Source: Psammoneis japonica (taxonomy: Eukaryota). Taken from it: a DNA stretch of 64,000 nucleotides. Location of the stretch: NCBI GenBank assembly GCA_008632985.1, contig QPGO01000111.1, positions 124,001 through 188,000 of the forward strand, given 5' to 3'. A model generated the notes under the pieces. It had not been told where the DNA came from, did not search any database, and worked only from the letters and a program-made list of their open reading frames with translations. Of the stretch, positions 4,041 through 30,800 are shown in pieces. The position numbers and the translations under genes are program-made. Numbering within the stretch: the stretch's first letter is position 1; every line of letters begins with the position of its first letter.

Positions 4041-5098
4041 TCAACCAATGTCAAGGAGATGCAAGGAAAAGCATGCGCACACCTTGAGAAACAGCAGAAA
4101 GCGCATTTGCGTGCCGACACCTTCATCCTCATCATCAGAAAAGAGTTGTTCCCTGACACATCCAGCAGTCAAGAACATGGTCACAACAAAGCCGTCCCAT
4201 GTTGAAAAGCACAAATTGCCAATGGCTGTGCCTGGGCCATCTCCAAATGTCACGCAGCTGACACCAAAGCAGCACATGGAGAGAAGCAGCACAGACATGA
4301 CAGACTCGCACATGAGGTTTGACATGTCCTTGATTGTCATGATGGACACAACCACAGCAAGCACTGTTCCAATCGCACCAAGACCAATGGCATTCTTGGT
4401 CCTCCTGCACGTGTTGGTTCCGTTGTCACAAACAGACTTGCAGCACCTCGAGCTGGCCACCAAGACAATGACCGATGCGGCAAAGAGTGCCGCCCACATT
4501 GCAGTCTTTTTCGAAGCCTTGGATGCATCCGCCACACCATGATCCTTGGCGAGACTGGCTACAATGCAGAGATTGGCAACAAAGGCGCCCCATGATGAAA
4601 AGTAAAGATTGGTGTTCTCAATGAAAAATGTTGCACCTCCAACTTTGCTTTGCGCCAAACCATTGTTGGGATCCATGATGACGGGCAAGCCAGCTGCCCA
4701 GAGAACAACAAGCAAACCCACAAAGCCAATCTCGACCGCCTTGCCTTCAAAGCTGTCTTGTACCACGAAGCGCGCGACAATGGCAAAAAAGGCAAACAAC
4801 ATGGAAATGGCCATCACAGACAGGACCCACTTGTCCGATGTGCTCTTGTCATCCACGTCACTGTCTGTCTGGAACGCCGTCAGCACGACCCACAACAAAG
4901 AGAATGAGGAGGTACAGAATGGTTCAGAACAGACAAGACTTTCACAGGATTGCAAAAGATCTAGACACGACTTGTGCTTGACACCAGATTTGAAACGAGA
5001 ACATGATCACATTCACAAATCAAAACACTGCAACACACCGCAGAAAAGATGGCCAAGGCGCACCAAGACATGAATCGATTGTTGGGATCGGGGGCCAT
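4041..5098 (-). pseudogene. Multi-pass membrane protein with internally repeated NLYF(S/T)W motif, partly hypermutated
   Basis: Exon 1 5098-5039 (MAPDPNNRFMSWCALAIFSA), GT donor at 5038, exon 2 from 4889 (VVLTAFQTD...) with ~8 hydrophobic segments; the acceptor reads TGG instead of TAG; NLYFSSW versus NLCFSTW. 3' end uncertain. Confidence 0.7.
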
Positions 5099-9281: not shown

Positions 9282-11010
9282 CTTAGTTTGGTTTTACCCA
9301 TTTGGGGATTCCCCAAAATGGCCAGGGTGAGGGGGAGTTACCTCACCCGTTTGGGGGAGTCCCGGGAAATGAGGGCAATTTTGCGGGAAGGAATGCCTGA
9401 AAGGGCTCAGGGGAGGGGAACAAAAACGAATGGAGTGCGGCAATGTGCAGCAAACACAGCCAGACAGGTGTGCTTTTATTGCCATGATGACCAAGCTAGC
9501 GAGCGAGCAATGTGACATGACGCACGACAATGATTGCATTGACACATCGACACAAAGCACCCCCTTCTGGCAGAGTGAGGAAAGAAGAAACTTCGCCATT
9601 AAATCTGCCATGTTGAGCTGTGATTCAAGATCAAAGCAAGTGGCTGGGTCACCACGCCATTCAGCAGTCTTTGCAAGAAACAACTTTGGGGTTGCAAAAC
9701 CCTGCCAAACCAATGCCACAATCATTGAAAGTGCAGCCAGTGTTGATTGAGAGGTGAACTCATGTTGAAAATTGTTGGACATGGAAGGCAGCATCGTGCC
9801 CCCACTTTGTGCACCTGCAAATCCCCAGCAAACAAAAATGAGCTTGACCCATGCTCTGCTGGTGCCAGCGCTGTGCATGGTTGAGGGAATGGATGGATGG
9901 AGCAAACAAAATTTTTTGTGTGCATGTCTTCCACAAAGAAAAAGGTCTGCTGCACTGCACGCATGAAACTGGCAGTCCAAACAAACCACATAAAACAAAA
10001 TGCAGAGAACAGCCTGCCAATGAGCATGTGCAGAAGCAAAACTGGAAAACGCCACAGTTGTGCATTGTTGAAAACAATGGGCTGCAAATGACACCCAGCA
10101 ACCCACCAGGCACCGTTTCAGGAGCACCAGAACATGGCATTGTCAGTTCATTCCTGAATCTGTGCCATGAGTGGGAGGGCTCAATGGCAACAACAACAGC
10201 AAAAGACACAGTTGCCACTCTAGGAAATGAGGGCAATTGGAATGCCTGAAAGGGCTCAGGGGACGGGGACAAAAACAAATGGAGTGCAGCAACATGCAGT
10301 GATTGCTTGCAGTCAGGTGGTTGTGCTTTCATCCCTGAGACAACTGATTGATGCATGACGCACGACAATGACAATGACCAATGCATCAACACATCAACAC
10401 AAAGCAGCTCCTTGTGGCAGAGCAAGGAAAGAAGAAACTTTATGATTGAATCAGCCATGTTGACGTTGCTCATGTGTGGTTCTTTTTTTGCCACATCCTT
10501 TGCTCTAGAGCCCTTGTGGTTTGCATTCTTGACCACGCGACACAAGAAAGAACACGTGAAACACTGCATTCTGCAAATGAGACAGATCAAAGGAAAGAAT
10601 GAGCATGACCACTCAAATGCACCACATTTTCATTGGCCTTGTGAGGTTGTGCTTTTGTCTCAGCCTTTGCTCTAGAAGCCTCATGGCTTGCATTTGCAGC
10701 TGCATGACAACAGAGTGATTCCAAATGATCCACTTCATTCTGCACACAAGATGTGTCAATTTGAAGAAAAAGCAAGACTGCTCAATTTGCAACATCATTG
10801 TTGGCCATGCACAGCTCTGCTTTTGCATTGGACTTTGCTGCAGATGCGCATGGCTTGCATTTGTGACAGCACCAAAAAACAACAAGTGCAACAATCTGTC
10901 AACACACCAGTTTTCTGAGCACAATCTGTCATGCTTCCATGCATTTTGTGTTTTACATTGTTGACTGCAATGTTGTTCACAAGATTGACTGGTGTCATTG
11001 TTGTTTGACA
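9282..11010 (+). repeat. Patchwork of repeat modules A, C, A', inverted B
   Basis: Direct alignment to 2128-3005 and to 24703-25349. Confidence 0.85.
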
Positions 11011-12416
11011 AAAGCCATCATAAATGGGGTGTGAACGCTCCATGGCATGTTGCCCATTCTTGTTGTGGTCAGTCAATTGTTGATTTGCATGTCTGGTGTG
11101 GCTCTGCATGTGCCGGCACACAAATGGAGCTTGCAGAAATGCACAAGAGGGGGAGCATGGGGAATTGCCAATGCATTGTTTTTTGTTCATGCATTTGGTG
11201 CACATGTGTGACAAAGCATCGTTTGTGCTTGTTCCCTGGGAACCCTTTTCCATGGAAAAAGTGTGGCAAAAGGTGGCAATCTTGGGGAATTTGGGGCAAC
11301 CCCATGGCAAAACCAAACCAAGCAACCCAGCAGGAAGTGGGGACCACACGTCGATGGTGCACATGTGACAGCTTGACTTTGGGCTCAACAAAATCACCTT
11401 GAATGGCTTTTGTGTGACAATTGAGGGCTGTTGTTGTGTGTCTGAATCATTTGTTTGCTTGTGCTTGCAGTTGAGCATGATCAATCTCACCATGTCTCAT
11501 CTCATTGCAATCTTGGGCATGCCAGAACCATGTTGAGAGGGTTGTTCATGACAGCTCTGCAAGGTGGAACTTTTCAAATCACATGGAATAATTTTCGCAC
11601 AACAGCTGTGGTCTGTTGTGGTGTGCTTGAACTTTGCCTGTCCTTGCATTTCAGGGTGATGAGTCTTGCTTCTCATCATTGTTTGGCGCACTGCATGCTG
11701 GAACCACGTTGTGTTGATTGCACATGACAGCTTGACTTTGATCTCAACAAAAACAGTTGGAACAACTTTTGTGTGAACTGTTTTTCCATGCATCATTTGG
11801 CAACGTGTCCTTGTGGTCCAGCATGATTTGGGTCATGCCCTTGTGGAAGCATCTGCCAGAAGAGCATCAGAGGCCGCAATGTGGTGTTGTTCACTTTCCT
11901 TTGGAAATGTCAGCACATTTAATTTGACAAAAGTGCGCTGTTGTTAGATGAATTTCATTTTTGTTTTGATGGTCAATTTACATTCATTGTTGCCGTTTTA
12001 TGTTGGCAGTTGTTGCCATTTTATTTTGCTTTTAAGTTGCCAAAGAATTTCAATGAGCCCTTTGTTGTTGAACAATGCTTTTTGTTTTGATTAATTTGTC
12101 ACATGTTTGTGGAAACATTGACTTTGACAGTGCTTTTCAACAGCTTCACCGCAGCCTTGCATCACCACAGACAATGGCATTTCTTTCTCGCCCCAGTCGG
12201 CCACGCAATTGCCTCTAGGAACGCCAGCTCATTGTCACCTGCACGCTCCAGTTGTCCAGTCAATGGGTCCCTGCCTCCATTTTGGTGCCTTTTCTACATG
12301 TGCAGTTCTCTGCCCATTTCATGACAGCACACCCTCTCCCCAAAATGCTTTTGACGAGAGGGTGCACTGTCATGAATCCTGTGCATTCTGTGTGAATCGG
12401 CAACTGACTGTTGGCC

Positions 12417-15400
12417 ATGGCATCCAATGACTTTACCCCGTCTGACGACGAGGTCGACCCTGACACTTCTTTCCAAATTACCGAGGACTGCAACTTCAAT
12501 GAAATGGAACATTTCACCAACAGTTTCGGATTCGAATTGTTCCAACCCAAGCTCAAAAGCACAATTGCAACGCGTGCCTCGAAAAAGAAGTTTTTGGAGT
12601 CGACGAATTGGACCCCCTCTCCAGAATTCCTCGCTCTTCCCTTCCTTTGTCACAAGCCGAAGTTACGCCGTGTTCCTCATGTTGCCGAAGTTATCCGCAC
12701 CAACAACGTTGTGAGGAAAACCCTTGGCTGTCCCGACATTTGGTCCTGCATCATGACTCGTGGTTGGTCCATTGAGAAATCCTGCCGTGCAAAAGGCGAG
12801 TGTGTCCCACGACATAAAAATCTCGAGGAGGCTCTGCATTTCTCCAAAACATCCGGAGAGACAGAAAAAGAACAGCAGAACCGCATGCTTCTCCACCGTG
12901 ACATCCAGGCAATGGCAGAATTTGTTTGCACGATCATTGCCGGAGACGACCCAAACGATCCTTTATCCGGCAAGCCTTGTTTCTGATTTTTACGGTGCAA
13001 AAGTCTCCAAAGTTTGATCAACGATCGAGCCCAAGACCTCCACAGTGTCGCTGACATCGTCATGTGTTGCGTTCAGCACAAGCCCAAGGACATGGACCAT
13101 TGGTTCTTGAAGATTTTCCGTCACGTCAAAACCCAAAAGGAATGGCACCTCTTTGTCAACAGCTTTCTGGTTGCATGTGATGCTGACAATCCTGGTGCCC
13201 AGGCGGACAAGATCAAGGGGTTCCTTGCCAACTCAACCGGCAACACAAAGAACACGGTGACAATGCAAGGCGATTCCCTTGCACGCCGTGAGGCTCGTGA
13301 AGAAAAAATCAATTCCATGTTGAATCACGAATTTGGGAAGCGTTGTCCCAAGGAGCAAATTGGTGTCCGACCTGGGCACAGCAAGCAGCTCACAATGCTC
13401 CGTTGCAGAATGTGTGATCAGAGGGCCGACTGCTTGGAAGACGATGACAAACAAATCTGCAACTCCAAAACCAAACGCAAAATTAGGAGGACAAGCAAGG
13501 ATGGCACCTGTTTGCACGATGGCAAGAAACCCCCCCACCTCCCGCCTTCTGCCTTTCCACCTGCATCTGCAGTCTCAACGTCTCTTCTCACACCCCATGA
13601 TTGTTCACGACCCACCAGAGCCTTCCTTGACTGTTCCCAGCAAGAAGGCCAAGCCTGCATCTCGCAACAAACAAGCACCTCCATTGCTTTCTGGCAATGT
13701 TCCGTCGTCTGGGGAGGCGCACCGGACTCTCACCGCCGACCTTCCGTCACTCTCAGAAACCACGGAAAACCTAAAACCTGCTTCTACCTCCAAAGGTCCT
13801 TCGTCCAAACCTCATTCCTCTCCTCCTTCTGTTTCAGCTAATCCTCCCGCGGTTGCGTCTCCTCCTGGTGACCCTGATGACATGTCATGGCTGGACCTGT
13901 CCACACTCCGCGATCACTTTGAACCGTCCAAGTGTCAACCCGCCACCACCGAGGAAGTTTCTTCTCATTTGTCACACCTGCACATCATTGACAAAGCCAC
14001 CGACACTGATCGGGTGCTTCATCATTCTGCCGCCGACTTTTGCCTGGTGGATGACTTGCGGGAAAACTGGCACACGTTCTCAAACAATGCGCCATCATGT
14101 GATTCCGCCGCCGCATCTCGTGTTCGAACCGAGCACCCTCCCAACCTTGACCACTTCTCCGAGGAACTCTCCGTCGCCCGTCAGGCTAACTCTCTGTACA
14201 AAGGGCACTTTGGGTGCCTTCGGGTGTGCATTCCTGCCCTTCTTCCACCCATTTTGTTGAAGGGAGAGTCCGATTTGACACGTGACGGACCGGTTGCAGT
14301 TCAAAACGGCGAAGCACGCAGGACAAAGTTCGGTTGTGCAGGGAGAGCGCATCACCCCAAGATGCCGGGTTCCACCAAACTGGCCAAACCAAAGGCCACT
14401 TACGGACTTGATGTCTTTGAGTCCGACGACAACTTCGACGCCAACGAGACCTCCAAAATCAAGGCGATGGCAGCCGACATCCTTGACTCGATTCAGCTTT
14501 GCAAAAATGAGGTAGAGCTGAAAAAACTGGGCAATCCACCACCACCCAACTGGTCACTTCGGTGCGAGCAATGCTTGCAAAAGTTGGGCAACGAAATGGG
14601 CTGTCTCTTCTTCAAACGTGAGGACGTCACCATGCAGGGATTGTGCATTTCCCGGGGTCAAGACTGTGATGGTCACCATGACAATAAAAACTGCATCTGG
14701 TGTCAATGTGGGAAGACAGCTGCAGGTTGCTTCTTTGTCATGGATGCCTTTGGCAACATCTGGTCCTTCAAGGTTGTTGCCAACAGCAGAAGGACCGTTG
14801 GTGAATGCTGCGACGACCAGCACGACATGAAGCCTGTGCTCACTTGCACGCACCACAGTCAAGCTCAGCTTGATTTTGCACTTAAAGACTTGGACTTGCA
14901 GCACGATGGTCCCACCCACCCCGATGTGTCGCTTTCCAGCATTGCATTCAAGCATCTTTCCCTTGACGACAACAGGCCGTGGGACAAAGTTCTTGTTGGT
15001 GGAGGTGGCGACTCTTCATGTGTCGAGGTGCACATGGATCGACTCAAGTTCCCGACTTTCCCAGTCAGGGACTTCCACTTGTCTGCCCCAGTCACAGTGA
15101 TCCACCGTTTCAAGAACATTGTGTGCTGATCAGGTCCCGACCCAAAACAAGTCATTCGTTTGGCGATCCATGCTGGTCATCCCACCGGATGTCACCGATT
15201 TTACTGCGTGGGGGACAAGTGTCTTCCCAACCTTTGTTGCGAAGGTGCCGACCCATTTGTCAACTTTGCCGATCACTTGCAGAACACATTTGGGGTGCTG
15301 TTCAGTGACCCACAGGTGGGTGGGATCAGCCCCACCAATTTGACGTACGAGAAATTTTGCGACGCATTTCTAGACCCTTGTTACGTCGGAACCGCGAATG

Positions 15401-17570
15401 ACCCAATTGACACAATGGTGGAAGAAATCTATGCTGTGCTTCTCTGGACAAAGGACAACGTCGACACCAACGAGTTCTGTCCCAACTTAATGGAACAATG
15501 GTGCAAGGCAGCGTGTGATGCTTGGGCAGACCGGGGAGCAGATTTCAGTGAGATTCGTCTCATGTTGGTGCTGCAATGTCTGGTGCTGGCAGGTGTCGCA
15601 GTGAAAGACCATCCAAGACTCAACAACATTGTCTGTCCTGTCTTCAATTTGGGAGCTGCCACACAACTGGGGCATGTCCAACCGAAAGAAAGGCCGCTCA
15701 TGCACCAAAGGATGTCATCCGAAACAGGAACCGAAGAGCACGGTTGGAACGGAACCGAGCACAAACTTTGTGAGAATTCAGACAATCGCTGCACCCACAT
15801 TTTTGATTGTGTTTTCTGAGGACCCTGTTCAGGACAAGACCTGTTTGCCTTCTCTCCCTCTGGCCAGCATCTCTGCAAGCCATGTGGGTCAACCAAGCAT
15901 GAAATTTTGGAGTGTGTTGACGACGACCCCAACCTTTGCCAATCACAAGACAACACTGAATTGCGCACATCTGTGTGTGAATCAGCCGGGCTGTCAGATG
16001 GTGCCAGTGTTTTCTCTGTTGTTGATGGACTGCCCGTGGACAATGAACTAAGCTCATTGTCTTCGGAGGAGTCTAGACTCGCCGCAAACAATGAACTGAG
16101 CTCATTGTCTTCGGAGGATTCTCGGCTTGCCGCAGAGAATGAACTGGGCTCAATGGATTTGGAGGAGTCTTGACTCGCCGCAAACAATGAACTAAGCTCA
16201 TTGTCTTTGGAGGATTCTCGACTTGCCGCAGAGAATGAGGGATTCGGATGAGTCTCGACTCGCCGCAAACAATGAACTGAGCAGATTGTCTTTGGAGGAG
16301 TCAGTGTTGTCGGAGGACTGCTCGTGTCTTGATTCGGGCTGCCGCGTTCCAATTGTCGCGATGGATTCTGTTGTCGTTCAGTCGCAGGATCAAGAATCCG
16401 ATGAAGATGATGCAAGCAACGCAACCGCGTACGATCGACCCGAGCCACCTGTCCTTTCACAAGCACAAGATTTTGACTTGGACGAACATGTGAATGCCAT
16501 GTTTGCGCAAGTCTGTCAACAGCCAAAGAACTCCTGCAATTGTTCTGTGGCATGTTTTTCACAAATCTCAACCCACAAAATGACTCATTCTGTGCTTTTG
16601 TTTCACATTGTCATGTCATCCCCAGACAAGACGGAGGTGCAAATGTCCTGTGGCTTTGCATGACTGGGCCCGTCATGGCCGGAAACCTGACATTGGATGA
16701 GATGTGTTCAGACCGTGGCATGGAGGCTGTCCGATCCACTCAGCAAAGAAGAGATGAGGCAAGGTGTCAAGTTGTTGCGGATCTCTGTACAAACTCAAAT
16801 GTTCATGTGTGCACTGTGTCCCTGCAGGATGGTGGCCCAACTTGTCACTTGAATTGCAACATTTCTGCTAAATTTTTGCCCAAAGGGTCAAGACGCGGTT
16901 TGCAAGAGACATCGATTTTAAGAAAAGCGGGTTCACTCAGATTTGCATGGACCACCACTGGATGCAAAAAGGGGAGTGGCAGCAGTCGACATTTGGAAAT
17001 TGCTTCTTTCGTGAAAACCCAAGGGAGGTGATGGAAACGTTGTTTCATCCAAAGCTCCAGAGGTGCCACGTCACAGTCCCGTGCACCATGTGGTCACCAA
17101 CCCAAGTCGCGCGCAATTTGAAATGCATCCAGGAATGTGCACTGGTGCTGGGAATGACACAGGACATGGCATGTGCCGAAGTGACGATTTGCCAGGCTTC
17201 CCAGGAAATTGTCAAGCAGGAACGTGGGGTTTGGCTGGGCAAACCATCTGACCAGGAGGCATTGCATTTGGGAGTCACGGAACAGGAAATTGGGCAAACA
17301 CTGCCAGATGCAGAAGCCAAAGCTGTCCTGGCATTCATCCAAGATTGTGGATTTTGCAATCCAAAGGAACTGTTCCTGCTCCTGTCCTTCGAGAAGAGAG
17401 TGCACAATTGGAGGGACAAGGTCAGCAGATGGCCCAGCAGTTTCTTGCTCTGCTGGTTGCCAGTCGGATTGTTGAGCAGATTTTTAAAGTGGGTGAGTGA
17501 ACGTTGCATCTGTTGGTGTCCTGGTCGTCCCGATCAAGTTTTCTGCTGCTGTTGTCGGATGCTCACATGC
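12417..17570 (+). pseudogene. Large transposon cargo gene with HxDxxN motif and C-terminal helical ExxLCE domain
   Basis: ORFs 12411-12986 and 13014-13841 share one frame; 13333-15129, 15160-15819 and 15907-16173 share another. Each break is a single TGA, consistent with CGA->TGA. Only 2 Tyr in the 598-aa ORF. The downstream part (16.5-17.5 kb) may be further exons or a separate gene. Confidence 0.6.
16041..16300 (+). repeat. Coding 48-bp tandem repeat (NELSSLSSEESRLAAN), about 5 units
   Basis: Repeated aatgaact(a/g)agctcattgtctt(c/t)ggagga...gccgca units. Confidence 0.9.
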
Positions 17571-17573
17571 TTT

Positions 17574-20500
17574 TCACCTGCTTTTGTGAAACAGCTCTCC
17601 CCATGCATTTCTGCGGTCTTGAACTGCCCAAACATGCTTTGTCCCATCGTGTGTTTCAGCAATGCCAGGTTGCTCCTCACACACCAACAATTTGTCGCCA
17701 ACAGCATCGATGGGCACCAAGAAAAGCTTGGGTGAGTGCACTGTTTGTTCAGCAGTGGACAAGTTGTTGTTCTTCACTTGGCCCAATTGCCAGCGACTGA
17801 CCAGGTCGGTGTGTTGCATTCGTTCAACCATGGTGCGCTTGTCAGGCTGTTGCGTGCAAGGGTGAACGACCGCATGCAAGTCACCGTCGCTTTCCCTTTG
17901 GAAGAAACAGCGAAGTCTTGACGGGAAGCACAATTCCCCCCTGGTTGTGCCAAAAGTGAACATTCGCCCAGTCATGAACCGGTCCTTCACTGTTGCAGTC
18001 TGGGTGTGCACGGCAAGTGTCTTTCCCGTTCTTGTTGCAGAATTTGGTTTTGCAAACAAGGTTGATGGTGAGATTGCCTCCTGCTCCAATGCAATCCCTC
18101 CACTTCTTTTGAAAGAAATGGAGCCGGACCGGGTGAGCCTGACATTGTTTTTGCTTCCCGTGCCAGAGAAAGCTCACTGCGTTGTTTGTCGCACTGCAGG
18201 TGATGGAAAAGGCACTGCCACCCAGTGTGTGACTGTCATTGCCACGTGTCACGTCCTTTCGTCCAACTCTCGATGTGATCCATGGGTTGGCCGACAATGC
18301 ACGGTGCACCATCATTTGGTCTTGCATGCGTGACACAACCTGACCCAGGAAGATGTCAAAGCTGCGTTGTTGTGCCGTGGCAGATGGCAATTTGAAAAAA
18401 TCCTCAAGCAAAGATTCCCCAAGACCAGCATCAAAGTTCATGGCATGATGGAAATGACATAGAAAGATTGGAAGGTGAAGAAGCTTGTGAAGTTTTTGCA
18501 GCTTCCACCCAGCCCCTTTGTGTCCAGGGGAGCAATGCACGGTGCGAGACACCAGCAACCGAATTTTCTTTGTGATTTTGGTCAGGTCAGTTGTGTCGGT
18601 CGGTGGGTCGCCGAGTCGACACCAAGCATGGAAGGCAAGCAGGTCTTCCAGCAACTGGGCGTGTTGCCCAACACTGCAACTGAGGGGCTTTCTCTTTTTT
18701 TTCCTTTTCCGTTGATTGTGGCTGTTGCCTTCATCCTCGGACTCGTCCGGTTGGTGTTCCACACAATCGTTGGCATCCGTTTTGCACGGATCATCTGTTC
18801 TGTTGTTGGAATGATGATCGTCGCCATTGTTGCACTCTTCCGGCATGTGACAGCGATTGATTCGGAACCCAGGCATCCCATGCCCTGACGGCAATGGAGG
18901 ATTGTCTTGGTCTTCCTGGAGAAAACAAGATTCGCAGACATCTCTGCCTTCCTTTGTCAGCAGCAACAAATGAAAAACAAAGGCCATCCCCGCCCAATGA
19001 TTTGAGTTGAGGCAGGTGAGTGATGTGGCCCCACCCTTGAAATTGGTTCGTAAGAAAGAATTGCAAGTGGATCGGTGGTTGCCAAACATTTTTTCCACTG
19101 ATCTGTCAACCTCGCTTCTCACTGAGTTTGTCATGCTGTCAACAAAAACACAACCTCCCTTTTTAAAGTTCCGTTTTCAAACAGGTGCATCATGTCGCTT
19201 GCCGTGGAAAGGGTTGCTCCGAATGGCTGTTCTCCGAAATCTGCATTGAGCAAGCTGTTGGCAGGCACATTGTGCTGCTTCATGCAATGAAGCTGCTGCA
19301 GCCAGTGGCTCCTTTCTTGCTTGTCAAGACTGAGATCATTTGCGTGGTTCTGGACCAACAAAATGTCGCCAGCCCTGACGAGTTCGCACTCCTTCCAAGG
19401 GTCGTCAAGCTCATTGCATCCGGTCATGCAAAACCTGGAACAACGTTGGTGACAGTTCTTGGCACCATGCCCACCCACAAGGCAGTCACCACTCTTCGCA
19501 TCTCCGTTGATTGGGATTGTTGTTGGAATGACATGAAGGAAACGCACCTCATCACTGTGTTGAACGCAGCAGCGAAAGCCACCATTTTCCATTGTGTCTG
19601 GCAGAGGCTGGAGCATTGTTGCCAACACCTTGTGATGATCCCGGATGCTTTGGCCCTTCTCCAACTTTCGGGCGTTAGATTGCTGTTTGGCGGCGGAGGA
19701 GGACATTTTTTCTAGGTCGGGAATGCAACCAAGGACACGCCACTTCGCTCTGTCATGCCATTGGTTGCAGGCAACATGAGCCGACGTAACTGTGACGGGT
19801 TCTCTGCAGGAAGACGACATGGAGGCTGTCTTCCCAGTCTTGTCAACGCAAATTGTCAAACATTCGAGGAACTGTTTAAGAGGATCCAAGACCCTGGCTG
19901 TGCATGCACTTCTGCACCACTCTCTGGCCAAAACACACTTGTCGTGCTTTCCCTTTGAGACATGCATTCCGCATGGATGGGCAGTGTCGGCAAGATTGCT
20001 GGGGTTGGCCCATGTGCAAGCATCCAGCATGAACGATTCCCACACATCTTTGAAATTCCATTGCAGAACTCTTGCAGTCGTCTCATCGCGTTCCCCATTG
20101 ACGCTTTCTAGGTTGACTGGAATCATCTCGCATTCCGGACCTGCAAAAGATTCGTGCAGGTTCTCCATTGGTTTGGTCCGGTGAGGGATTTGCGTTCCAA
20201 GATGGAAGGTGCTGCCACAGTGTCTTTCGATGAACTCAGCGATCTTGTCGCACAGGTGAAGCGGTGCTCTGCAGTCGTCCAAGAGCTTGCACAGCTCTGC
20301 ACAAGCACCGCTGAGGTTGCCAAGAGATGGCATGCAGGCAAGTGCATCTTCGGCTGGGCTGCGGCACACCTTGCCCAATCGGCTGTCTTCACTCCGCGAA
20401 TCATCTTTGTCTGAGATGTTTGATTTGTCATGATTTGCAACTTTGGAGCCCTCCATTGTGACATCTGGCAACGCATCAAACGAGTCATCTGGTGACAAGC

Positions 20501-21008
20501 TTGCTTCAGAAGACAAGTCCAGGGACATGTGATGAATTTCCTCATGATGGGATCACGACCCAAGAGCGGAGATGTCATCATCAAACGGTGGTGACCATGG
20601 TTCATCGCTTCTGTCATTTTCGTTGGTGGTGGACCCAAGCCTGATGTTCGCTGCAGACGCACCGCGTCTGGACCGCCTCAGCCTTGGCTGTGACGAGTCA
20701 TCTGATGAGGAGGAAATGTCGAGATCAACCGACCCACGTCTGCGAGAGAATTTGTTGCTGACATTGGAAGTTTTAGCCGCAACCCTTGCTGACAACTCTG
20801 GCAATGGGCAGTTTGTGACTGCCTTGCGACGTGACAAGTTGGACCTCTCTTGAGCAAACGAAAAACACAGCGGGCAGTGATGGAAATGTGTGAGCATCCA
20901 TTTGAAGGATCGTTTGCAACACGGACATGCGACCGCACCATCCCCACCCTGCCAGCCACCGTTTCCTTCCATTTTACATTTCAGCAGGTTTGTGGGCTTC
21001 CCAAACAC
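17574..21008 (-). pseudogene. Plavaka-type transposase, frameshifted and hypermutated
   Basis: Motifs ICVDKTG, WRVLGCIPDL, IRDHHKVL, GDAKSGD, SDMMHLFENG, WKLQKLHKLLH, NFDAGLGE, CRAHPDCNSEGPVHDW match the family as I recall it once Cys/His are read as Tyr; N-terminal CPCCKRSF...H zinc finger; split across ORFs 20553-21008, 19131-20528, 17881-19134 and 17574-18089. Confidence 0.8.
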
Positions 21009-21265
21009 ATGTGTGTTCGAATGGCATCACCGGCTCAGTTCGTGAAAAGTGAAACAGTTCAGGCGGCAAGGAAGAAAAACACGACACGAATTGGCACGAA
21101 AACATTGGTGCATTGTGTTCTTCCCATCAATGAAAACATTGATGGGTGAGAATGAATCGAGTGTGTTGGGATCATTGACAACTTTGAGCATGAACAACTG
21201 ATTGCAAAGGTTGTTTTTCCATGGAAAGGAGAAAATAAGTTGTGACGTGATGCGCCGCAATGCCA

Positions 21266-22442
21266 CATGGCAAGAAGTCCAGGATGGGTGCACCCACACC
21301 TGCTGCAGCAACAGACACAAACGTTGCAATCAACAATGAATGCTGTTGTGCAAAATGACCACTCAATGGCGCATTGGCCAAATGACTGCTGGAGGAGATT
21401 TGAAAGTTTGACAATCATGACAGAAGATGGAAGGTGACAAATCATGGATTCGGAGTGCAACGCGGCTTTTGATGAGTTGGATTGTTTGATGCAATCTTTG
21501 CCACAAGGCAGGATGGTGCATTCTGATGACACGGGCACAGCTTTGATAAAGTTTGAGAGCGGCACACATGCGGTTAACCCGCACCTGCGCCGTGACGTGA
21601 TGGACCTGTGTCGCATGATGAGTGAGGACGACATCCAAGCAGAGGTGCAACCACATGGTTTGGGTGCACCAACATGTGAGTGATTGGAGCACAGAAGCAA
21701 TTGAGTGCATGCACGCCAGCACAGGCATGATCTCAATTCACGACAACCTGAACTGGTTGAATGGCATCGTCAACCGTGGGATTTGTGCTCGCCATTGCCA
21801 GGAGCATTGGGACTGCGTCGCGACTCACCAAGACAGGCAAGGAAGGATGTGCTGTGTCTGCAGCACTTGGCACAATGAAGGAGAGAAAGAGCTGAGGGAT
21901 GAATTTGCAGCGGGTGCGTGTGATGACACAAAACCAGTCATTGACAGTGGAGATGTTTCGAGATTGAGACGGAATTCAAGCATCAGCATGCCGACCCATG
22001 GCATGGATGAGACAGGCACTTGCGGACCGTTGGGAGAAACATCAGCGAGGGGAGGCACTTGCGGAGACTGGCAATGGACAAGAAGGGAATTGTTTGTGAT
22101 GCATTAAAACTGGCGAAGTGGTTCCAGCGTGACATCATGCGAGACAACCATGAAAGACTTTGGTTCTGTGAGCAAATGGAGTTCTTCAGGTTGTCTCCAT
22201 CGACAGTCAATGAATGGATGCGGGACATCATCAGGAAGGAGGATGGTGAGCGGGAGAAATTTCACAGCAGGAGAAAGGAAAGGCGTTGGGTGGAGAGACG
22301 TCGTCGCATTGAAGTTGACGAATTCGTGAGAATGGTCGGAGCGGAGACGAGGGCTTTCACCCACATGACTGACTGTTCCGACAGCGGGCGATGCATCAGT
22401 TTGAGAGTCACCAGGTTAGAGGGAGATGACGAATTGGACTAG
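21266..22442 (+). pseudogene. Degraded transposon cargo ORF, unknown function
   Basis: Successive protein-like ORFs 21444-21683, 21622-22107 and 22020-22442 broken by TGA stops and frameshifts. Confidence 0.4.
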
Positions 22443-22855
22443 AAAAAACGATTTGGCGCCAAAAGGCATGGATGTGCTTGGGCCCCAACCGCAAACCGGA
22501 ATGTTGTTAAAGCAGGTGAGGGGTTTGTTCATTGCAGTAAAAACAACTTTTGTGGGTGCATGTTTCACAATGATGTTTTGAACAAAATGCTTTTGCAAGC
22601 TGTTTACACTGTGGAAGTGGATTTCGACATTGCAGCAAAAGAGAGGTTTGAACTGGAATTCGCAGGGATTCAAAATTTTCGCAAGACAATGAGGAATGGC
22701 AAAATGGATAAATTGCATGTGCATTAAAAATTTTGGTCAATTCTCCATCATGTTGCATTTGAGAAAAAGGAATCATTGGTGGCAACTGTGAGATTTTTAG
22801 CACCAAAGAGAGGTTTGAAAATTTCCCAACGGCGAAAACAACCAGGGACACAAGG

Positions 22856-24120
22856 CATGGAGCCACCCACAATTGGCAACAGTGGCACAGGCAATGGTGA
22901 GGAAGAGGAAGAAAGAAACTGCGGGGGTGGCTGGAGATCAACCAACAAGCCCAAGGCTGGCTGCAGCGTTGGTGCGGGTGGGAGCCACTGGGGATCACCA
23001 GTCCATGAAGAGAGAGGCAGAAGAGGTGGCGCAGAAGGAACTTTTCCCAAAGGCAAAATTCCTTGTCAAGGCGGACATGGCAAGCAGTGGCAAAGTGTCA
23101 CGGCTCATCAGGAAAAAGACAGCCGGCGGCAATTGCAGCAAGCGAGACTCGGCAGGAGCTTGGGAAGACTGGGCAAAGAAGTGCGTCATGCATGCAATTG
23201 GCACGAAAAGGAGCACGGTCACTCAGGCGATCAAGAACAATGCAATGACTGGCAAGTGTTTTGTGGTGCACGGCATGTTAGATGCAGCTGTGCTTGGCAC
23301 AGCTGCACCTTTATTTGCTGAAGTCGTGTTGACAGAGAACGAAGCCAAGGAGATGCGCAGTCAGAAGAAGCTGGCAGCAAAGGGCAGAGGAGGGAAGAAG
23401 AGCAAGAAGCGGAAGAAGAACGATCGTGCGGAAGAGGAAGAGCCGTTCCTGGCGACTTGGGGGGAGGAGACAGTGACAACGATTGTGGAGGACAAGCGCA
23501 AGAACAAGGAAGCACATGCTTGGTTCTATGGAAACATCCTGAAATTCACAAAGAGCACCACCACATGGAGAAGGAAGGCAGAGTCAGGTGAGACGAAGGC
23601 AACCGGTCTGGCCACAGTGAGCGACGAGGCTCTGGCACTGTTGACATTGGAAAACTGCTGGAAGAGTTGGGAGCACAAGGCACGTCATGACAAGACTGTT
23701 GCAGCAGGGGGAGGTTCGGACAAAGAAGATGAGGAAGAGTCGGAACCAACACCCAAGCACACGGACCCGTCGAGGCAACGAGACTCGTGGAAGGATGCAG
23801 GGATTGAGCGATTCAACGAACTGCTTGCGGAAGTAAAGAAAGACAGGTTGAGCAAGGAGGGCATGCAGTTCGACACATGGTGCAGCAAAGGCAAGAAAAG
23901 GAAGAGTGACGAAAGAGACAAGGGATCAAAAAGAAAGAAAAAGCCGGTGGAGGAGGCAAGAACACAGGCAACGACAGAGCTTTCAAGTGACAACGAGGAG
24001 AAGGAGGAAGAGGTGACGGGCGAGAACAGAGGAGACAAGGACAGCAAGGAAGAGGAGGAGGAAAGTGATGCGGGCAGCGATGCGAATGTAGATGCAGATG
24101 ATGAGCGAGCTGCGGCATGA
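22856..24120 (+). pseudogene. Transposon accessory protein (K/E-rich; TVSDEALALLTLEN-W...PK-TD...W-DAGIERFNEL)
   Basis: 415-aa ORF with 1 Tyr; this motif set is one I associate with ORFs next to Plavaka-like transposases; probable intron near 23254-23320. Confidence 0.6.
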
Positions 24121-24702
24121 AAAGGCAGCGGAGGCTTTTGTCAGTGTGACAATGGAAAGAGGACAAGCAAAGCAGTGGGTTTCAATGTCAACAGTTGTGA
24201 GGTTTAACGAAGCATTTCAGGGATCACTGTTTTGTGATCTAACCTTTCATTTGACAACCAGTGCATGCAACAGAAGGTTCTTTAAACCAACACAATGCGG
24301 TGATTGGTGCCAATTTGTTGTCAAACAAAACATTTTGAACATCGCTTTCAAAAGGTAAAAAGTGACGGAATTCTGACAGTTGAGGGAGGGGTCCCACAGG
24401 TGAAGGAGGGGACCCATGGTGAAAAATGTTGTGCTGTGACATGTGATAAAAAATCACGTTCTACACAACTCTCTCAAAAGGATGCCTTTGTTTTTACACA
24501 TGCAACAGTGTTGAAAATTACCCATGAGAAGGGTGGTCAGGATCACCACATTTCGCGCTCTGATGAGCTGCTGCTGCATGGCAAATTTTGCACTGTTGCT
24601 CCACTTGGAACTCAACAACAGTTGGAGTGGCCTTTGTGGGTTGACTTGGTTTGTTTTCACATGTTTGTTTTGTCTGGCCGTGTCATTTTTTTAAGTCAAA
24701 CT

Positions 24703-25349
24703 GGAGCTGTGATTCAAGATCAAAGCAAGTGGCTGGGTCACCATGCCATTCAGCAGTCTTTGCAAGCAACAAATTCAAGGTTGCAAAACCCTGCCAAACC
24801 AACACCACAATCATTGAAAGTGCAGCCAGTGTTGATTGAGTGCTGAACTCATGTTGAAAATTGTTGGACATGGAAGGCAGCATCGTGCCCCCACTTTGTG
24901 CACCTGCAATGCGTGATGGCTGGTGCACGGGGCTGGGGCCCTGGCCATTGAAAAATCCCCAGCAAACAAAAATGAGCTTGACACATGCTCTGCTGGTGCC
25001 AGCACCATGCATGATTGAGAGGATGGATGGATGGAGCAAACAGCAATTTTTGTGTGCATGTCTTCCGCAAATGAGGCCTGCTGCACTGCATGCACGAAAC
25101 TGGCGGTCCAAACAAACCACGCGAAACAAAATGCAAAGAACAGCCCACCAACAAGCATGTGCAGAAGCAAAACTGGAAAATGCCACAGTCGTGCATTGTT
25201 GAAAACAATGGGCTGCAAATGACACCCACCAACCCACCGGACACTGTTTCAGGAGCACCAGAACATGGCATTGTCAGTTCATTCCTAAATCTGTGCCATT
25301 GATGAGTGGGAGGACTCAACAGCAACAGCAAAAGACACAGTCCCCACTC
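24703..25349 (+). repeat. Repeat module C, copy 2
   Basis: Aligns with 9615-10220 (gagctgtgattcaagatcaaagcaag...), with a ~45-bp insertion near 24908-24952. Confidence 0.9.
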
Positions 25350-27419
25350 TCACCATCACTGTCAAGTGATGAAAGCAAAGAGGAAAGTTGCCAACTTTCA
25401 AGAAGAAAGTCAAAAAACTCCATGAAAATGTGTCCCATGGACTCTGACAATGCAAGACATCTTGAAAGCACAGCCAACAAAGGAGAAGCAGAGGAGAGTC
25501 CAGTCAGAGTCAAGTTTGGCCTGGTGAAGGCACATGTGATTAAAGGGGAAGACAAGATCCTTTGTGACAGCAACTGGAAGTGGCACAAAATGGGTTGATG
25601 GGATGAGAATGGGGACAGTGCTCACTGGCAGCAATGGCAATTTTTGCATCCAGTTGTGTCTGTTCTGCCGCATTCATCAGTGTGTGAAGCCAGTGTCGTC
25701 TGGTCCAGACACTGTGGCTCATTGCAAAATGCCTGCTGGAAACTGGCACATTTGCATGACTGTCATCATTTGACAGCAACTGGTGCTCTGCAATTGCACA
25801 GCACTGAATGCCAGATCATGTTGCATCAAGCTGCAACATTTTCCATTTCATGTTTCTGAACTGGAGGCGACAATGCCAAGACAGTCATCTGCCATGCTGG
25901 TTGTTGCAAGTCATTTGCCTCCAATTCAAGAGAGGCAACCTGAGGAAATTGAGCAAATGAGCGGTTGCGGTGGTGACGCTGTTGACAGCATCGAGGTGAC
26001 ACTCAAACCACTGGGTGTTCCCATGTTGCTTCAAGTGCACTGTGCAGCGACCAAACATCATTTCAGTCAGACCCAAATCAGGGCAACACAGAGCAGAACA
26101 GATGATTGCAGCCCCCATGGCTTCAAACACATGTTGACAATGCAGTGCGCACAGTGCACTGGCACATTGTCCAGCACTGTGATCATGGAGGGCCATGCGG
26201 CGGACGTGTTCCAGCCGCACGTGACCAAAGTCGTGCACAAAAATGACATTTGCGCGATTTTTGCATGGTCTCTGACTTGCAAATGGTTTTTCACCACCAA
26301 AAATGTAGATTCATTCAAATTCTAATGTTTTGCAACACTGACAAGACTCGTGTGAGTGTTGCAAAATCATTGTCATCGTGCCATCAATGTTTTTCATTGC
26401 GACAAACGAGTCGCAACACAATGGCTGATTTTTGGCGAAATTGTTGCCGTCATTTGGATGTCAACCAAGTGTGTCTTTCTGTGATGCTTCTTGGTAGATT
26501 TTCCACCCACAAAGAAATCTCAGCATGAAGAGCACTGACGCACAATCAGCATTGAGTCCACTGAGGAAGTTCATGATGCATGTTCCATGAGGACTTCAAT
26601 GCCCCACAAAAAACCATTTAATTCTTCACAATTGTTCACACTCTAGACACCTGTAAAAGCCAATCCGCTTGAGCATTTCACATGAACATGCTCCGTGCAC
26701 TGATGGGCACACAATTTATGTTCAAAATCGATCGTCGTTTTGTGTGTCACCTGGGGCTGGAACACGTGTCGGCGGGGCAGCATCATCGGAGTGCACAGCA
26801 GCAGCATGTTGGTGACTCAAAATTGGAGGCATCCCACCAGAAGGGAGCATGCCATGCAAATCAGCAGAAATGGGAAATGAGGGCGGCTCGGCACACACAT
26901 GGCAGGTGCAGTCGCAAGGTGCTGGGGACGAAGAACGGGAGGTCGTCATGGTCGAGTTGTCAAAAAGCGTGTTTTTTGTGCGGAGAAAAGGAGCTGCCAA
27001 AGCTGCGTTTCTGCACCCCCGGTTTTTGGAGGTCAAAGTTTTAGGGGAGAACATGGCTCTGGATTTTTCCTGTAACTGTTGGCATTTGTCTGCAAATGCA
27101 CAAAGGAATGTTAGGACATTTACATAGAAACATCATGTACAAAATAAGATATAAATCTGCGACGTAACCATGACATCACCACATTCCCGCCTGCCACGCA
27201 CAGGGGTGGCGCAGAAGATGGAAGATGAACGGTGATCACGGTTAGAGGCACTCTCTAGAGTCTAAGCTTTTCCATCTTGACAGCAACGCGAGCACATTCT
27301 CATTACTGTCCTTGTCTTTGTAGTGTCGGTAAAGCGTTGGACCGTGCCGGTTGTCAAGAAAGAACAAGATCTGGCACTGAAGAAAATTGTATGAGAAGAA
27401 ATTGAAAATAGAAAAAACA

Positions 27420-27815
27420 ATGGCCTCACGAAAAGTACCTCCACAATTGGCTCGAGAATTACAACGACACATTGCCAAAAAGACAAGCAGTAGTAACAGT
27501 GGCAGTGGCGGTAATAATTCACGCAATAAGGTCTTGTGGGGATGTCTTGGTTTTACGGGTGTCGCTGCGTCGTTGCCCTTTATCAGTATGCATTGGATTG
27601 GTGGTTTGAACGACAAGGAGGGTGAATTGACCGCGGCACAAGTTCGGCGTGGTGCCTTTATGAATTCTGGTTCGAAGGATGCGGGGCGAGACGAGAATTG
27701 GGACTTTAGTACGGGAACTTACAATAAGGACAATCCGCATTATCGAGATTTGTTTGAACGAGATAATCCGAATGAAGTGGAGCACGGAGAAGAGTTTTTC
27801 AAACGAAGACCATGA
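27420..27815 (+). CDS. Small single-pass membrane hypothetical protein (131 aa)
   Basis: Intact ORF MASRKVPP...; one hydrophobic segment followed by LTAAQVRRGAFMNSGSKD; normal TA content. Confidence 0.75.
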   Translation: MASRKVPPQLARELQRHIAKKTSSSNSGSGGNNSRNKVLWGCLGFTGVAASLPFISMHWIGGLNDKEGELTAAQVRRGAFMNSGSKDAGRDENWDFSTGTYNKDNPHYRDLFERDNPNEVEHGEEFFKRRP

Positions 27816-27857
27816 CACAATATTATTAAATTAGAAAGAAAGCTACTTTTATGTAGT

Positions 27858-30800
27858 CTATTGTGAATTAACAGTCACCATCCACTGCATGGGAAACGTA
27901 TACGTGAGCTTTTCATTGGGTGCTGCAGAAATTGTCAGTCGAACGTGCTGAAGGTTATAGATCCCTCCGGAAGCAATCGAAACTTGGAGCGGAACAGCCA
28001 ATTGATCTCCCCCTTCCAGCTCCCATGCAAACGATTCTGCTCCGATAAATGCAATGCGACCGTCGGAGCTGTGTTCCATGCAAAAGTCAAACTTGACGGC
28101 CGAGCCGACGAGTCGATTCATCAAGGTAATGTCTAGAGCAATGCCCTGTCAAAGATATAGCGGCATCGGGACAAGAGCGTTGGGTACACAAACTTGCAAG
28201 GAATTGCCAATACACCAGTCACAATAAAAGGGTGCACTTACCACTGGACCTTTTGAAAAATCGTGAGTAACCGTTGATGGATGCTTGGCTGTAATGGTGA
28301 TTGGACACCCCAGGTCAATTTCTGCCGGTCTCACCGAAAGCTGCGTCAAGTGATGTTGCCCATGGATATTGTCATGCCCTCCACCATTGCCGTCTTGTTC
28401 TCCACAAGCGTGCCACGAACAAATCACGTTAATCTTGGACAAGAGCGATTCGGGTTCTTGTGGACAGAGACGCGCCAACGATGTTGGATGAACGTTGCTG
28501 GAAGTAGCGTCATTGAGAGATCCAACCTCAGAGGCCCCATCTGATGCAGATCCACCGTTGAAATCGTCGTCGTCACTTGTGCTGACTGAACTCTTGGCTC
28601 TTCTAATGGAACTGATCGAACGAGGATTCCCCGAGTCTTCCTCCTCGGCTGCAATTCTCGCGAGCTCTGCTTCATGATCTTGAAGGTCGTTCTGCAACAA
28701 AGGTGGAGGTGACAGAAGCGTGAAAAGATGGTGAGACCTCCCAAGTCGACGCCCTTCATCATATTTGCAAAGCCCATTGACAGACACGTACCTGAAACTC
28801 ATTATGCGCATGTTCCAAACATATATAGTCGGTTCTGTCCGGGTCCGAGCTGAAATCTTGGACTTCCCGGAACTGGCACTTGCTCAACAGCGCGTTGGTG
28901 GTGGTACCATCTGTGGAAACGGCATCCCGTGGGACAAGGCGGTAGTGCATTGTAATCCGCTCTTGCCATCCAATCTCCGGCGTCGCTGCCGGCCCATTGT
29001 CGGCGACTTGTCCGACGAAACGCTCCAGTTTGTATTGCCGACTCGTGATGCTCAGCGTGTCCAGGGCGACTTCGAGGTTGGTCGGTCTGTCGCTTCGTTG
29101 GTTGGTAATCTGAACAAAGAAAAAATGTTGAGCGCTCACAGGGGACAACAATATTATGAGGAAATTACAAGCTTTCAGACTCACTTCCAGCGACAGCACA
29201 TGTTCTGATGCCTTTCGATACGATGGTATGATAGAAGCCATGAGCGACAAGGACGGATAGACAGGCACATGAACCATTTTCCGCAACCACCGCCTTGCGG
29301 TATATGTCATTGTAGGATCCCACAGCTCGTAACGGTACAGCATGTAAAAGTCCTGCTTGCCGGACCCGCATATTCTTGCCTGAACGGGAATGTCGACTGT
29401 CTCTCCGGGGTAAATGGGACCCTGGTTGCCTTCGCCACCGACGGGTAGAGACATGAGTGTTCCGGATGGTCCCACGCAATTCGACGTGGCATCCGTGATA
29501 GAGGCAACATTATTGTGGACAATATTGATCCACGGAAGATTGGTCTTGAGAGTGATGTTGCATGCGGGAGCTGTTCCCTTGTTGGTCAGACGAAGATTCC
29601 AAGAGCTGATTTGCCCTTCCAAAGCTTGGCCAGTGTAGGCGGTGTTGCTGGGCTCGGTCGACGATGAGCTGTCCGTCCGAAAGGCCTTGACAGTGAGACA
29701 GGGCATGCCTTGCTCGACCTTTGCTTTAAGAAGAACACTCTCACCTCGAACTGTAGAAGGGTGACAGACACAAATTATCATGTGAGTCAGAGTACGACTG
29801 TGAGACAATCAAGACCAACGTGGCTTACTTCGATTCGCTTTTTGATCTCGTGTGTTTTGTAAAAGCGGTCCCTTTATATCAAACGGATGATAGACCCAAA
29901 TGTGATCGAGCAGTTTGAACCGAACTCCCATGATTTCCAAATCGCCCTCGAGCAGCGGACAAATCGAAAGTGACATGTTCTTGGTCGACCCGGGCTCCAA
30001 CGACCGACTGGTCTTGGTCACTACAAAGAAGGGTGTTTCCATCTCACTCATGGGCACCCAGGGTGTCGTCATGGCCTCTTTAGGATTGCTCGTATTCATG
30101 CGACCAAAGTGCGGCACGGTAAAGTCAATGCCGTGAAACGACCAAGTCTTGGCGTCCTGCTGATGAGAGCTACCGCCGACATTGATAGCGTCCTCGCTTG
30201 TACAAATACCTCCATGCCGCACGACATGCCTCGCCACCAACTGTATGCTTTCCAACTGTATCGGAATCGCAAGCGGATTACTAATCTCAAAGCCAACCGA
30301 CAGTGGTTCCATCATGGCTCGCACACGTGGCTTGGCCTTTGAGGATAGCTTGGCAGCCCGCTCGGTTCGTTCCAGGTTTGTGTTTTCCTTATCCATCTCA
30401 TAAATGACTCGCCGAGTCGCAAAATTGTCAATCTTGCCCAAGGCTTGGATCATGCCCAGACTCATTGTGGTTTCTTGTCCAAACTTGTACTGAGGATTGG
30501 CAGCAACCCGCAATTCTGCCTCGACACTGCATTCCAATTGTTTCCAAACCGACTCTGATCCATCGTCGGGAGTGCCAAAGAATTCCAAAGCCAAATGGTC
30601 GTCTTGCTCGGTCTGGGGTTTCTTCTTTTCCGTATCGACACAAATCTGAACCGTCGTGTCTTCAATACACGGCAGGTCCATATTGTGCAATTCCAAAACA
30701 CGCGTCGCACCCGGCGTCACGTCCAACACGTGTTGAATATGTTGGGTCCGTTCCTCGTCGGCTCGACTCGACAAGAGAGCCATGCGGTCCGACCCCACCG

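Follow-up and report, generated by a model that had tools for sequence, protein, structure and literature searches.

The contig QPGO01000111.1 of the diatom Psammoneis japonica (GenBank assembly GCA_008632985.1) carries, in the 64,000 nt analysed here (positions 124,001 to 188,000 of the forward strand; hereafter the window), long blocks of transposon and other repeat DNA in which the dinucleotide TA has nearly vanished. A sliding-window and segmentation analysis of the window delimits four such TA-poor domains, with three gene islands between them (Table 1). Domain 2 holds the best-characterised element, a frameshifted gene of what appears to be a Plavaka/KDZ-type DNA transposon, in which tyrosine (Tyr) codons are gone. 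We consider it likely that the domains record a TpA-specific A:T to G:C transition process that is near completion in diatom repeat DNA, with decay of CpG superimposed on it.

TA-poor domains and gene islands

The domains hold 162 TA dinucleotides in 37,350 bp (4.3 per kb) and the islands 988 in 26,650 bp (37.1 per kb; Fisher p = 1e-216). Expressed as observed/expected ratios, TA stands at 0.04–0.09 in the domains and at 0.54–0.56 in the islands, while TG and CA reach 1.64–1.89 in the domains (109.2 and 107.0 per kb, respectively). The interval 9350-27030, on which a preliminary description of the window had centred, contains 96 TAs (ratio 0.085). The domain borders are sharp, less than 150 bp in width, with TA density at domain 2 switching within 9339-9477 at one end and within 26717-27042 at the other, and the compositional borders coincide with junctions between repeat and unique sequence. 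All TA-poor DNA in the window is repetitive or has a paralogue within the window. The preliminary description had reported four TA-poor, TG/CA-rich domains that alternate with normal gene islands across narrow boundaries, and the counts bear this out.

Its further claim that the loss is specific to TpA also holds, since AA, TT and AT are essentially unchanged and both strands are affected. The domain/island ratio is 0.12 for TA (an 8-fold depletion), 1.04 for AA, 1.03 for TT and 0.89 for AT. AA has an observed/expected ratio of 1.13–1.30 in the domains and 1.17–1.19 in the islands, and the dipyrimidine steps TC, CC and TT show no change in the domains. GC content is nearly equal as well (0.47–0.50 in the domains, 0.46–0.49 in the islands).

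CpG is a second casualty. Its observed/expected ratio is 0.29–0.56 in the domains versus 0.86–1.01 in the islands (26.2 versus 55.9 per kb), with a minimum of 0.06–0.08 at 48–50 kb, in domain 3. Diatom transposons are CpG-methylated, and Phaeodactylum has DNMT5a (PMC9998398), so decay of CpG to TG and CA is expected in such domains. The balance of losses and gains nearly closes: per kb, 32.8 TA and 29.7 CG are lost (62.5 together) and 67.5 TG+CA are gained, and it closes for each sequence context too. CpG decay supplies about half of the TG/CA gain. The preliminary description had taken the TG/CA excess as the product of TpA change; this stands as far as the TA loss goes, but the half that comes from ordinary CpG decay had been overlooked.

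The loss of TA reshapes the reading frames. Over all six frames of the TA-poor domains there are 1833 TGA, 159 TAA and 74 TAG codons (233 for TAA and TAG together). With TAA and TAG erased and TGA nearly the sole stop, TA-poor DNA is filled with long meaningless open reading frames (ORFs): in ∼37 kb there are 112 of at least 110 aa, with 0.15% Tyr, 5.8% Cys and 4.9% His. Gene callers may annotate such spurious TA-free ORFs as orphan genes.

A probable transposase remnant without tyrosine

Three minus-strand ORFs of 465, 417 and 171 aa in domain 2 are pieces of one frameshifted gene. Across these ∼1000 aa there is not one Tyr; at the family median of 2.97% Tyr, the probability of finding none in 1006 aa is 7e-14. 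The remnant shares 51–75% identity with a related protein, P0002. A search with P0002 retrieves 1105 proteins, whose full-length forms are 1100–1450 aa long, and 7 of 10 full-length P0002 relatives match the Pfam family Plavaka (PF18759), 6 of them above the gathering cut-off. Pfam searches with 7 and then 84 ORFs of the TA-poor domains, and with P0002 and a further relative, P0001, returned no transposon domain; the only results from the window ORFs were a histidine-triad (HIT) remnant in domain 4 and three sub-threshold matches, and the other repeat families of the domains received no classification. Membership in the Plavaka family is thus a matter of transitive homology, since the window ORFs, P0001 and P0002 have no Pfam match of their own. 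On this footing the element is best classified as a degraded Plavaka/KDZ-type DNA transposon. The label ‘transposase’ given in the preliminary description is supported by the full-length relatives and by none of the window ORFs directly.

Tyr is a regular constituent of this family. It makes up 1.1–4.7% of residues (median 3.0%) in the best 150 relatives listed, and 12 of 12 further relatives that were checked fall within the same range. Of 33 Tyr sites in P0001 and P0002, the window has Cys at 12 and His at five (17/33). In all seven columns where Tyr is conserved across the family, the window codon is one that a single transition away from TA would produce: TGC three times, TGT once, CAT twice and CAC once. 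Other conserved residues are mostly retained (His 9/9, Trp 10/11, Cys 6/7, Val 12/14, Asp 17/22). The sense strand of the gene contains 310 TG, 354 CA and nine TA dinucleotides. The direction of change, TA to TG and TA to CA on both strands, is shown by these codons and alignments, and is read from the end state rather than from observed events. The preliminary description had noted the absence of Tyr from the 465- and 417-aa ORFs, to which the adjoining 171-aa ORF can be added; it had quoted six peptide motifs, all of which are present in the window ORFs, and had proposed the replacement of Tyr codons by Cys and His codons that the conserved columns confirm.

It had also named an observation that would speak against a mutational origin, namely intact, active family members equally free of Tyr and TA. 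No TA-free relative was found among the best 150 proteins (lowest Tyr 1.1%) or among 47 environmental (metagenome) loci of the same transposase family, whose TA ratios are 0.35–0.74, in searches that were biased against mutated copies: one of the two metagenome search patterns itself contained Tyr. Several metagenome relatives of low GC content (0.35–0.46; L030, L033-L036, L042 and L044) combine CG ratios of 0.02–0.29 with normal TA, and their hosts presumably methylate CpG heavily and have no TpA process.

The three sub-threshold Pfam matches in TA-poor ORFs are to DUF6739 (12263-12649, minus strand), DUF6969 (22011-22439, plus strand) and DUF7914 (56806-57162, plus strand), at 16–19 bits with a cut-off of 27. 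Further element genes, blurred by mutation, may have left these traces. Domain 2 also contains a 48-bp tandem repeat of ∼6 units (15986-16310) within a long Ser/Leu/Ala-rich ORF on the minus strand.

Sequence context, CpG decay and divergence among copies

The TAs that survive in the domains are not a random sample. TTAA accounts for 41 of 163 residual TAs, 6.4-fold more than its share in the islands, while ATAT occurs once in the domains versus 97 times in the islands, ATAC 0 versus 77, ATAG 1 versus 59 and GTAT 2 versus 67. In strand-symmetrised counts per 10 kb, ATAT falls from 36.4 in the islands to 0.3 in the domains and TTAA from 14.6 to 11.0. With R for purine and Y for pyrimidine, R-TA-Y has been erased and Y-TA-R spared, TTAA above all. 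By our arithmetic the two flank effects are roughly multiplicative, as would follow from independent hits on the two strands by an agent that reads one neighbour. The table of products suggests 5′-TAY with A changed to G, as in CTAC to CTGC, GTAA to GCAA and ATAG to ACAG. Such a context bias among the surviving TAs suggests that an enzyme lies behind their loss.

TA loss is also separate from CpG loss. Windows of 1 kb that keep a CG ratio of 0.75–0.86 are already at a TA ratio of 0.07–0.13, and environmental loci with CG ratios of 0.02–0.3 are still at TA ratios of 0.52–0.66; that is, DNA with nearly intact CpG is TA-free, and CpG-depleted relatives keep TA. TA appears to have been lost early and quickly, and CpG to be decaying slowly and still: segments whose CpG is close to normal already lack TA, and copies that are nearly identical differ chiefly at CpG sites.

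Copies within the window preserve traces of both losses. Domains 1 and 2 share repeats: 2215-2600 matches 10224-10605, and 2616-3002 matches 10623-11020 in inverted orientation (91%). When TA-poor paralogues of the window are aligned (4649 positions), TG in one copy facing CA in the other is the commonest dinucleotide difference, at 99 of 219 differences that affect both positions, as against 5 of 124 in duplicated protease genes that serve as a control in normal DNA. An exchange of this kind is the expected outcome when an ancestral TA or CG is resolved independently in two copies. A model with CpG decay only predicts ∼59 such sites, or 47–78 when the CG/CG count is taken as 12 or 20. Some TA was thus probably lost after duplication, a reading that depends on the model. 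A tandem duplication of 303 bp at 47840-48448 is 99.7–100% identical and already TA-free, and it is a recent local copy of DNA that had been mutated beforehand.

Three public sequencing runs from one sample and one study are available as contigs; they may be the data from which the assembly was built, and no platform is recorded for them. No RNA run was among the entries listed for this DNA. Contigs of one run (X1) were compared with positions 8001-28000 of the window, where summed k-mer depth is not to be read as a copy number. Depth is 56–59 over unique sequence, so that ∼57 marks a single copy. Inside domain 2, X1 contigs of depth 55–73 (9791-10089, 10126-10440, 11166-11891, 20774-21064, 24880-25220 and 25257-26260) show 0–3 differences from the window over 291–1004 nt. 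Contigs of unique depth stop at 9311 and resume at 27006, adjoining the compositional borders. Summed depth within the domain is ∼75–7600, and most of domain 2 is therefore multi-copy. The contigs of depth 55–73 place TA-free DNA in the same genome as the genes and at the same copy level. Contamination or a chimeric assembly was rejected as a source of the domains, as the low-copy TA-poor contigs share the depth of the gene islands.

Between the window and X1 copies that are at least 90% identical to it, 238 of 284 differences are transitions. Forty of these 284 places were listed, which after grouping make 38 differences: the window has TG/CA where the copy has CG in 13 and the reverse in three, TG/CA where the copy has TA in three and the reverse in two, TG against CA in two, and other differences in 15. 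In this young family the TA-free state appears mostly common to the copies, and CpG decay still separates them.

The main features are collected in Table 1; the sequence of the window is complete except for a lone N at 53823. The HIT match in domain 4 covers residues 11-39 of an ORF at 56584-56985 (minus strand), and the region of the triad reads LVCHLHLHVLG; canonical HINT proteins have Tyr where this sequence has Cys. The remnant stems either from a host-type gene that became trapped in the mutated domain or from a captured fragment of a gene, and its presence there means that embedded non-transposon coding sequence is affected too. The HIT/HINT-like remnant as a whole lies at 56584-57440 (minus strand) and includes a CIFC-containing stretch further upstream in the same frame.

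In the gene islands the genes are long and nearly free of introns. For a TRAPPC8-like ORF on the minus strand (29812-32760), the best named relatives, at 46–48% identity, come from raphid pennate diatoms (Seminavis, Mayamaea, Nitzschia, Cylindrotheca, Bacillariaceae), which marks the host as a diatom and not Bigelowiella. Two divergent paralogous genes for subtilisin-like proteases follow, at 34029-37886 (minus strand) and 38377-41827 (plus strand), with 71–77% inverted similarity between 36013-37686 and 38415-39918. Both encode long Pro/Thr/Ser-rich linkers and repeated Cys-rich modules, and a 99-bp tandem repeat, 89% identical, lies in a Pro/Thr-rich linker at 35235-35432.

Table 1. Features of the 64,000-nt window (ratios are observed/expected)
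Feature	Position	Strand	Remarks
TA-poor repeat domain 1	1..4990		TA 0.06, CG 0.31, TG 1.89, CA 1.77; extends past the window start
TA-poor repeat domain 2	9435..26975		TA 0.09, CG 0.56, TG 1.64, CA 1.64; degraded Plavaka-type gene and other repeats
Repeat copy	9615..10221	+	84% identity to 24704-25350, 15.1 kb apart; both copies TA-poor, CG 0.2-0.28
Putative Plavaka/KDZ-type transposase remnant, frameshifted, Tyr-free	17580..20927	-	tblastn with 161 family proteins
Second copy of the 9615-10221 repeat	24704..25350	+	X1 depth ~75-90 = low copy at >=90% identity; TA 0.03-0.04
Gene island, internal control	26976..42742		TA 0.56, CG 0.97; TRAPPC8-like and two subtilisin-like protease genes
TA-poor repeat domain 3	42743..50111		TA 0.04, CG 0.38
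TA-poor repeat domain 4	56551..64000		TA 0.06, CG 0.29; extends past the window end
HIT (histidine-triad) domain remnant, in domain 4	56869..56955	-	Pfam PF01230, E = 8e-5, 23.7 bits (cut-off 21.5)
Old paralogue pair	57622..59451 with 61900-63731	+	80% identity; 54 TG-versus-CA sites in 1865 aligned columns

Candidate processes and known systems

Hypermutation confined to TpA has a precedent in the chlorarachniophyte alga Bigelowiella natans. According to a 2026 preprint by Mettrop et al. (bioRxiv 10.64898/2026.01.13.699255), an integrated region of nucleocytoplasmic large DNA virus (NCLDV) origin and a virophage region received 231 of the 302 nuclear mutations in mutation-accumulation lines; 230 of these 231 were A to G or T to C, all at TpA, at a rate of ∼6e-7 per site per generation. 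Silent integrated viral DNA in this alga mutates ∼1000 times faster than the remaining genome, and only at TpA. The same preprint describes 324 TpA-depleted coding sequences enriched in DDE and reverse transcriptase domains and 124 clusters poor in TpA and rich in CpA+TpG, and its authors propose an ADAT2-like adenine deaminase (10.64898/2026.01.13.699255). By our arithmetic, from the B. natans rate and a TpA share of 3.3% of dinucleotides, half of the TpA would be lost within a few tens of thousands of generations, which would make saturation quick on an evolutionary scale. The preliminary description had held that no such process was on record in algae, a view that the preprint has made out of date. 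In full-text searches of the literature, this preprint is the only account we found; for diatoms or other stramenopiles, neither hypermutation specific to TpA nor repeats free of TpA came up.

In every feature that can be tested from sequence, the window fits the signature that the main text of the preprint gives for B. natans: change is A:T to G:C only and at TpA only, yields TpG or CpA depending on the strand, and is restricted to discrete mobile or foreign regions, depleted of TpA and enriched in CpA+TpG, beside a normally mutating genome. The differences are of host, target and stage. P. japonica is a diatom (Stramenopila) and B. natans a chlorarachniophyte (Rhizaria). Saturation has been reached here (TA ratio 0.04–0.09, compared with a Rho of 0.45 in the NCLDV region), the DNA affected is multi-copy transposon and repeat sequence rather than single-copy viral inserts, CpG decay occurs alongside, and what we see is an end-state footprint where the preprint measured a de novo rate. 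A flank filter that removes RTAY and keeps TTAA is observed here; from the main text of the preprint the words ‘context’, ‘flanking’, ‘trinucleotide’ and ‘CpG’ are absent.

Fungal RIP (repeat-induced point mutation) is the obvious analogue. RIP changes C to T, mainly at CpA, through a RID/DNMT4-type enzyme at a premeiotic stage, and creates TpA and AT-rich isochores. As in the present case, repeated or mobile DNA is hypermutated irreversibly by transitions in both strands, borders to normal genes are sharp, coding capacity is lost and the dinucleotide composition is diagnostically skewed. The direction is the opposite one: TpA is what the domains lose, and their GC content remains at 0.47–0.50, as the preliminary description had recognised in calling the process opposite to RIP. 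Diatoms themselves have a DNMT4 that is related to RID (PMC9998398). The decay of methylated CpG to TpG and CpA is present in the domains, but it cannot remove TA, and TA loss in the window is complete where CpG is nearly intact. With APOBEC3/AID, ADAR and the TadA/ADAT2-3 deaminases the process would share the idea that mobile elements are inactivated by enzymatic editing of bases, including the conversion of A to inosine, which reads as G; APOBEC enzymes, however, change C to T, and ADAR acts on double-stranded RNA and would require an RNA intermediate. We know of no natural eukaryotic enzyme that edits TpA in chromosomal double-stranded DNA domains.

The explanation that we favour runs as follows. 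In transposon and repeat DNA, TA would be converted to TG or CA on either strand by what is plausibly the same process as in the B. natans lines, with a chromatin- or RNA-guided enzyme acting in situ on silenced mobile DNA. Destruction of Tyr codons and of TAA and TAG stops would leave the elements permanently inactivated. The likeliest single chemistry would be deamination of adenine to hypoxanthine at 5′-TA by an ADAT2/TadA-like or other deaminase, a proposal that we put forward tentatively and at less than even confidence; to our knowledge, the deaminases that act on tRNA position A34 always see U33 before it, which would match a need for 5′-TA. Since a rhizarian alga bears the same signature, the system may be old and could extend across the Stramenopila–Alveolata–Rhizaria (SAR) group. 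That diatoms possess such an old, possibly SAR-wide TpA-editing defence, with a preference for R-TA-Y, which rapidly sterilises transposons ahead of CpG decay as a counterpart to RIP, is to us nearly, though not quite, an even call. The preliminary description's core, a domain-restricted mutator of TpA to TpG/CpA in repeat DNA, is retained in this account, whereas the RIP-like recognition and the role in defence that it attached to the mutator are without support.

Several observations weigh against the favoured explanation. The window offers an end state alone, without observed de novo events. There is no TA-free locus among the 47 environmental relatives, which leaves the breadth of the process among diatoms without support from them. 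X1 and its sister runs share a sample that may also be the source of the assembly, on a platform that is not on record. The excess of TG-to-CA exchanges between paralogues (99 versus ∼47–78) depends on the model. Two tests of the flank or strand that is read did not bear out 5′-TAY: sites with TG facing CA show no enrichment in symmetric contexts (0.59 versus 0.57–0.64), and among 21 ‘polarised’ paralogue sites the 3′ neighbour of the changed A was better-ranked in 3, worse in 10 and tied in 8, although these 21 may themselves be TAs of recent origin. Of the 38 grouped differences from X1 copies (out of 40 listed of 284), only 7 involve TA or TG against CA, while 16 are of CpG type, and a TA-free state shared among copies would fit amplification of one already mutated copy equally well, and so does not prove action in situ on each. 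There is also no strand-coordinated clustering of the kind expected of a processive single-strand deaminase, though saturation would erase such clusters. In the pair 57622-59451 / 61900-63731, adjacent TG/CA sites showed no strand coordination (28 of 53 alike versus 26.3 expected, P = 0.37), and the variance of the local TG-versus-CA skew was not raised in TA-poor DNA (1.28 versus 2.12 in the islands).

The alternative that survives best keeps signature and targeting and changes the chemistry. A TET/JBP-type dioxygenase might oxidise the T of TpA to 5-hydroxymethyluracil (5hmU) or 5-formyluracil, which would mispair with G and give T to C. Sequence alone cannot tell T to C on one strand from A to G on the other, and the context bias suits 5′-R-T-A with T to C as well as 5′-T-A-Y with A to G. 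Dinoflagellate 5hmU is concentrated at TpA, 5-formyluracil promotes mutation towards C, and in fungi TET/JBP genes are associated with KDZ/Plavaka transposons. 5hmU itself, though, pairs well with A and is weakly mutagenic. We regard thymine oxidation as unlikely, but as the strongest of the alternatives; the B. natans authors likewise prefer a deaminase, which is itself a proposal (10.64898/2026.01.13.699255).

A second alternative dispenses with an ongoing process. Each family would have become TA-free a single time, before it was amplified or while in a former host, and what continues now would be only the spread of mutated copies together with CpG decay. The shared TA-free state of the copies that are at least 90% identical speaks for this, as does their pattern of differences (13 against CG, as compared with 3 against TA and 2 of TG against CA among the grouped sites), and the 303-bp tandem duplicate shows that mutated DNA can be copied as such. 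Yet the four domains comprise several unrelated repeat families and the HIT remnant, all equally TA-free; the old paralogues in domain 4 have come to differ in TG versus CA, and the overall count of 99 such sites exceeds the ∼59 predicted from CpG alone; and the residual TAs show a context filter that resembles a steady state. We consider a single gain per family improbable, and more so than thymine oxidation.

We give still less weight to a sequencing or assembly artefact, in which a modified base at heterochromatic TpA is miscalled and the real DNA keeps TA, a possibility that the preliminary description had raised. The common sample and study of the runs, their possible identity with the assembly's source and a library type that is not on record would allow it. 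A strand-dependent miscall, however, would yield a mixture of TA, CG, TG and CA calls and not a clean loss of TA and CG, and X1 contigs at single-copy depth reproduce the TA-free sequence almost to the letter, a match that needs accurate reads. A base-calling artefact is therefore unlikely. The same signature is, moreover, present in Illumina mutation-accumulation data of B. natans (10.64898/2026.01.13.699255).

Equally remote is an untargeted process in silent chromatin, be it synthesis by DNA polymerase eta with its bias from WA to WG (W, A or T), ADAR-like RNA editing followed by reverse transcription, or unrepaired ultraviolet (UV) damage at TpA. All three give A to G or act at or near TA, and silent repeats lack transcription-coupled repair. 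The composition of the domains largely contradicts them. Polymerase eta, one of the candidates named in the preliminary description, would hit AA as well, and the undepleted AA of the domains led us to reject it. ADAR prefers a 5′ neighbour in the order U~A>C>G, edits after A also and acts on the sense strand only; AA is not depleted, against this preference, both strands are changed, and the best-characterised element, apparently a Plavaka-type DNA transposon, has no RNA intermediate. UV should strike the dipyrimidines TC, CC and TT far more, and these are unchanged. Horizontal arrival of intrinsically TA-free DNA was rejected because the transposon family has normal Tyr and TA, and selection against UpA because the encoded proteins are destroyed.

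The phenomenon itself has thus been described before, in B. natans, and what is new here is its saturated end state in diatom transposons. A single chlorarachniophyte preprint is the sole description of TpA-only A:T to G:C hypermutation that we found, and the diatom case indicates that the process is not peculiar to one rhizarian or to viral inserts. It suggests that TpA hypermutation can be the dominant route of mobile-DNA inactivation for a major group among the primary producers of the sea. The flank rule, RTAY erased and TTAA spared, is a constraint that any candidate enzyme has to satisfy. If the reading as an old defence is true, diatoms would practise genome defence by an enzyme that either deaminates adenine in DNA or oxidises thymine, with a chemistry opposite to that of RIP. 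Model diatoms with transformation and CRISPR would make the enzyme, a natural A:T to G:C editor of DNA bases, findable.

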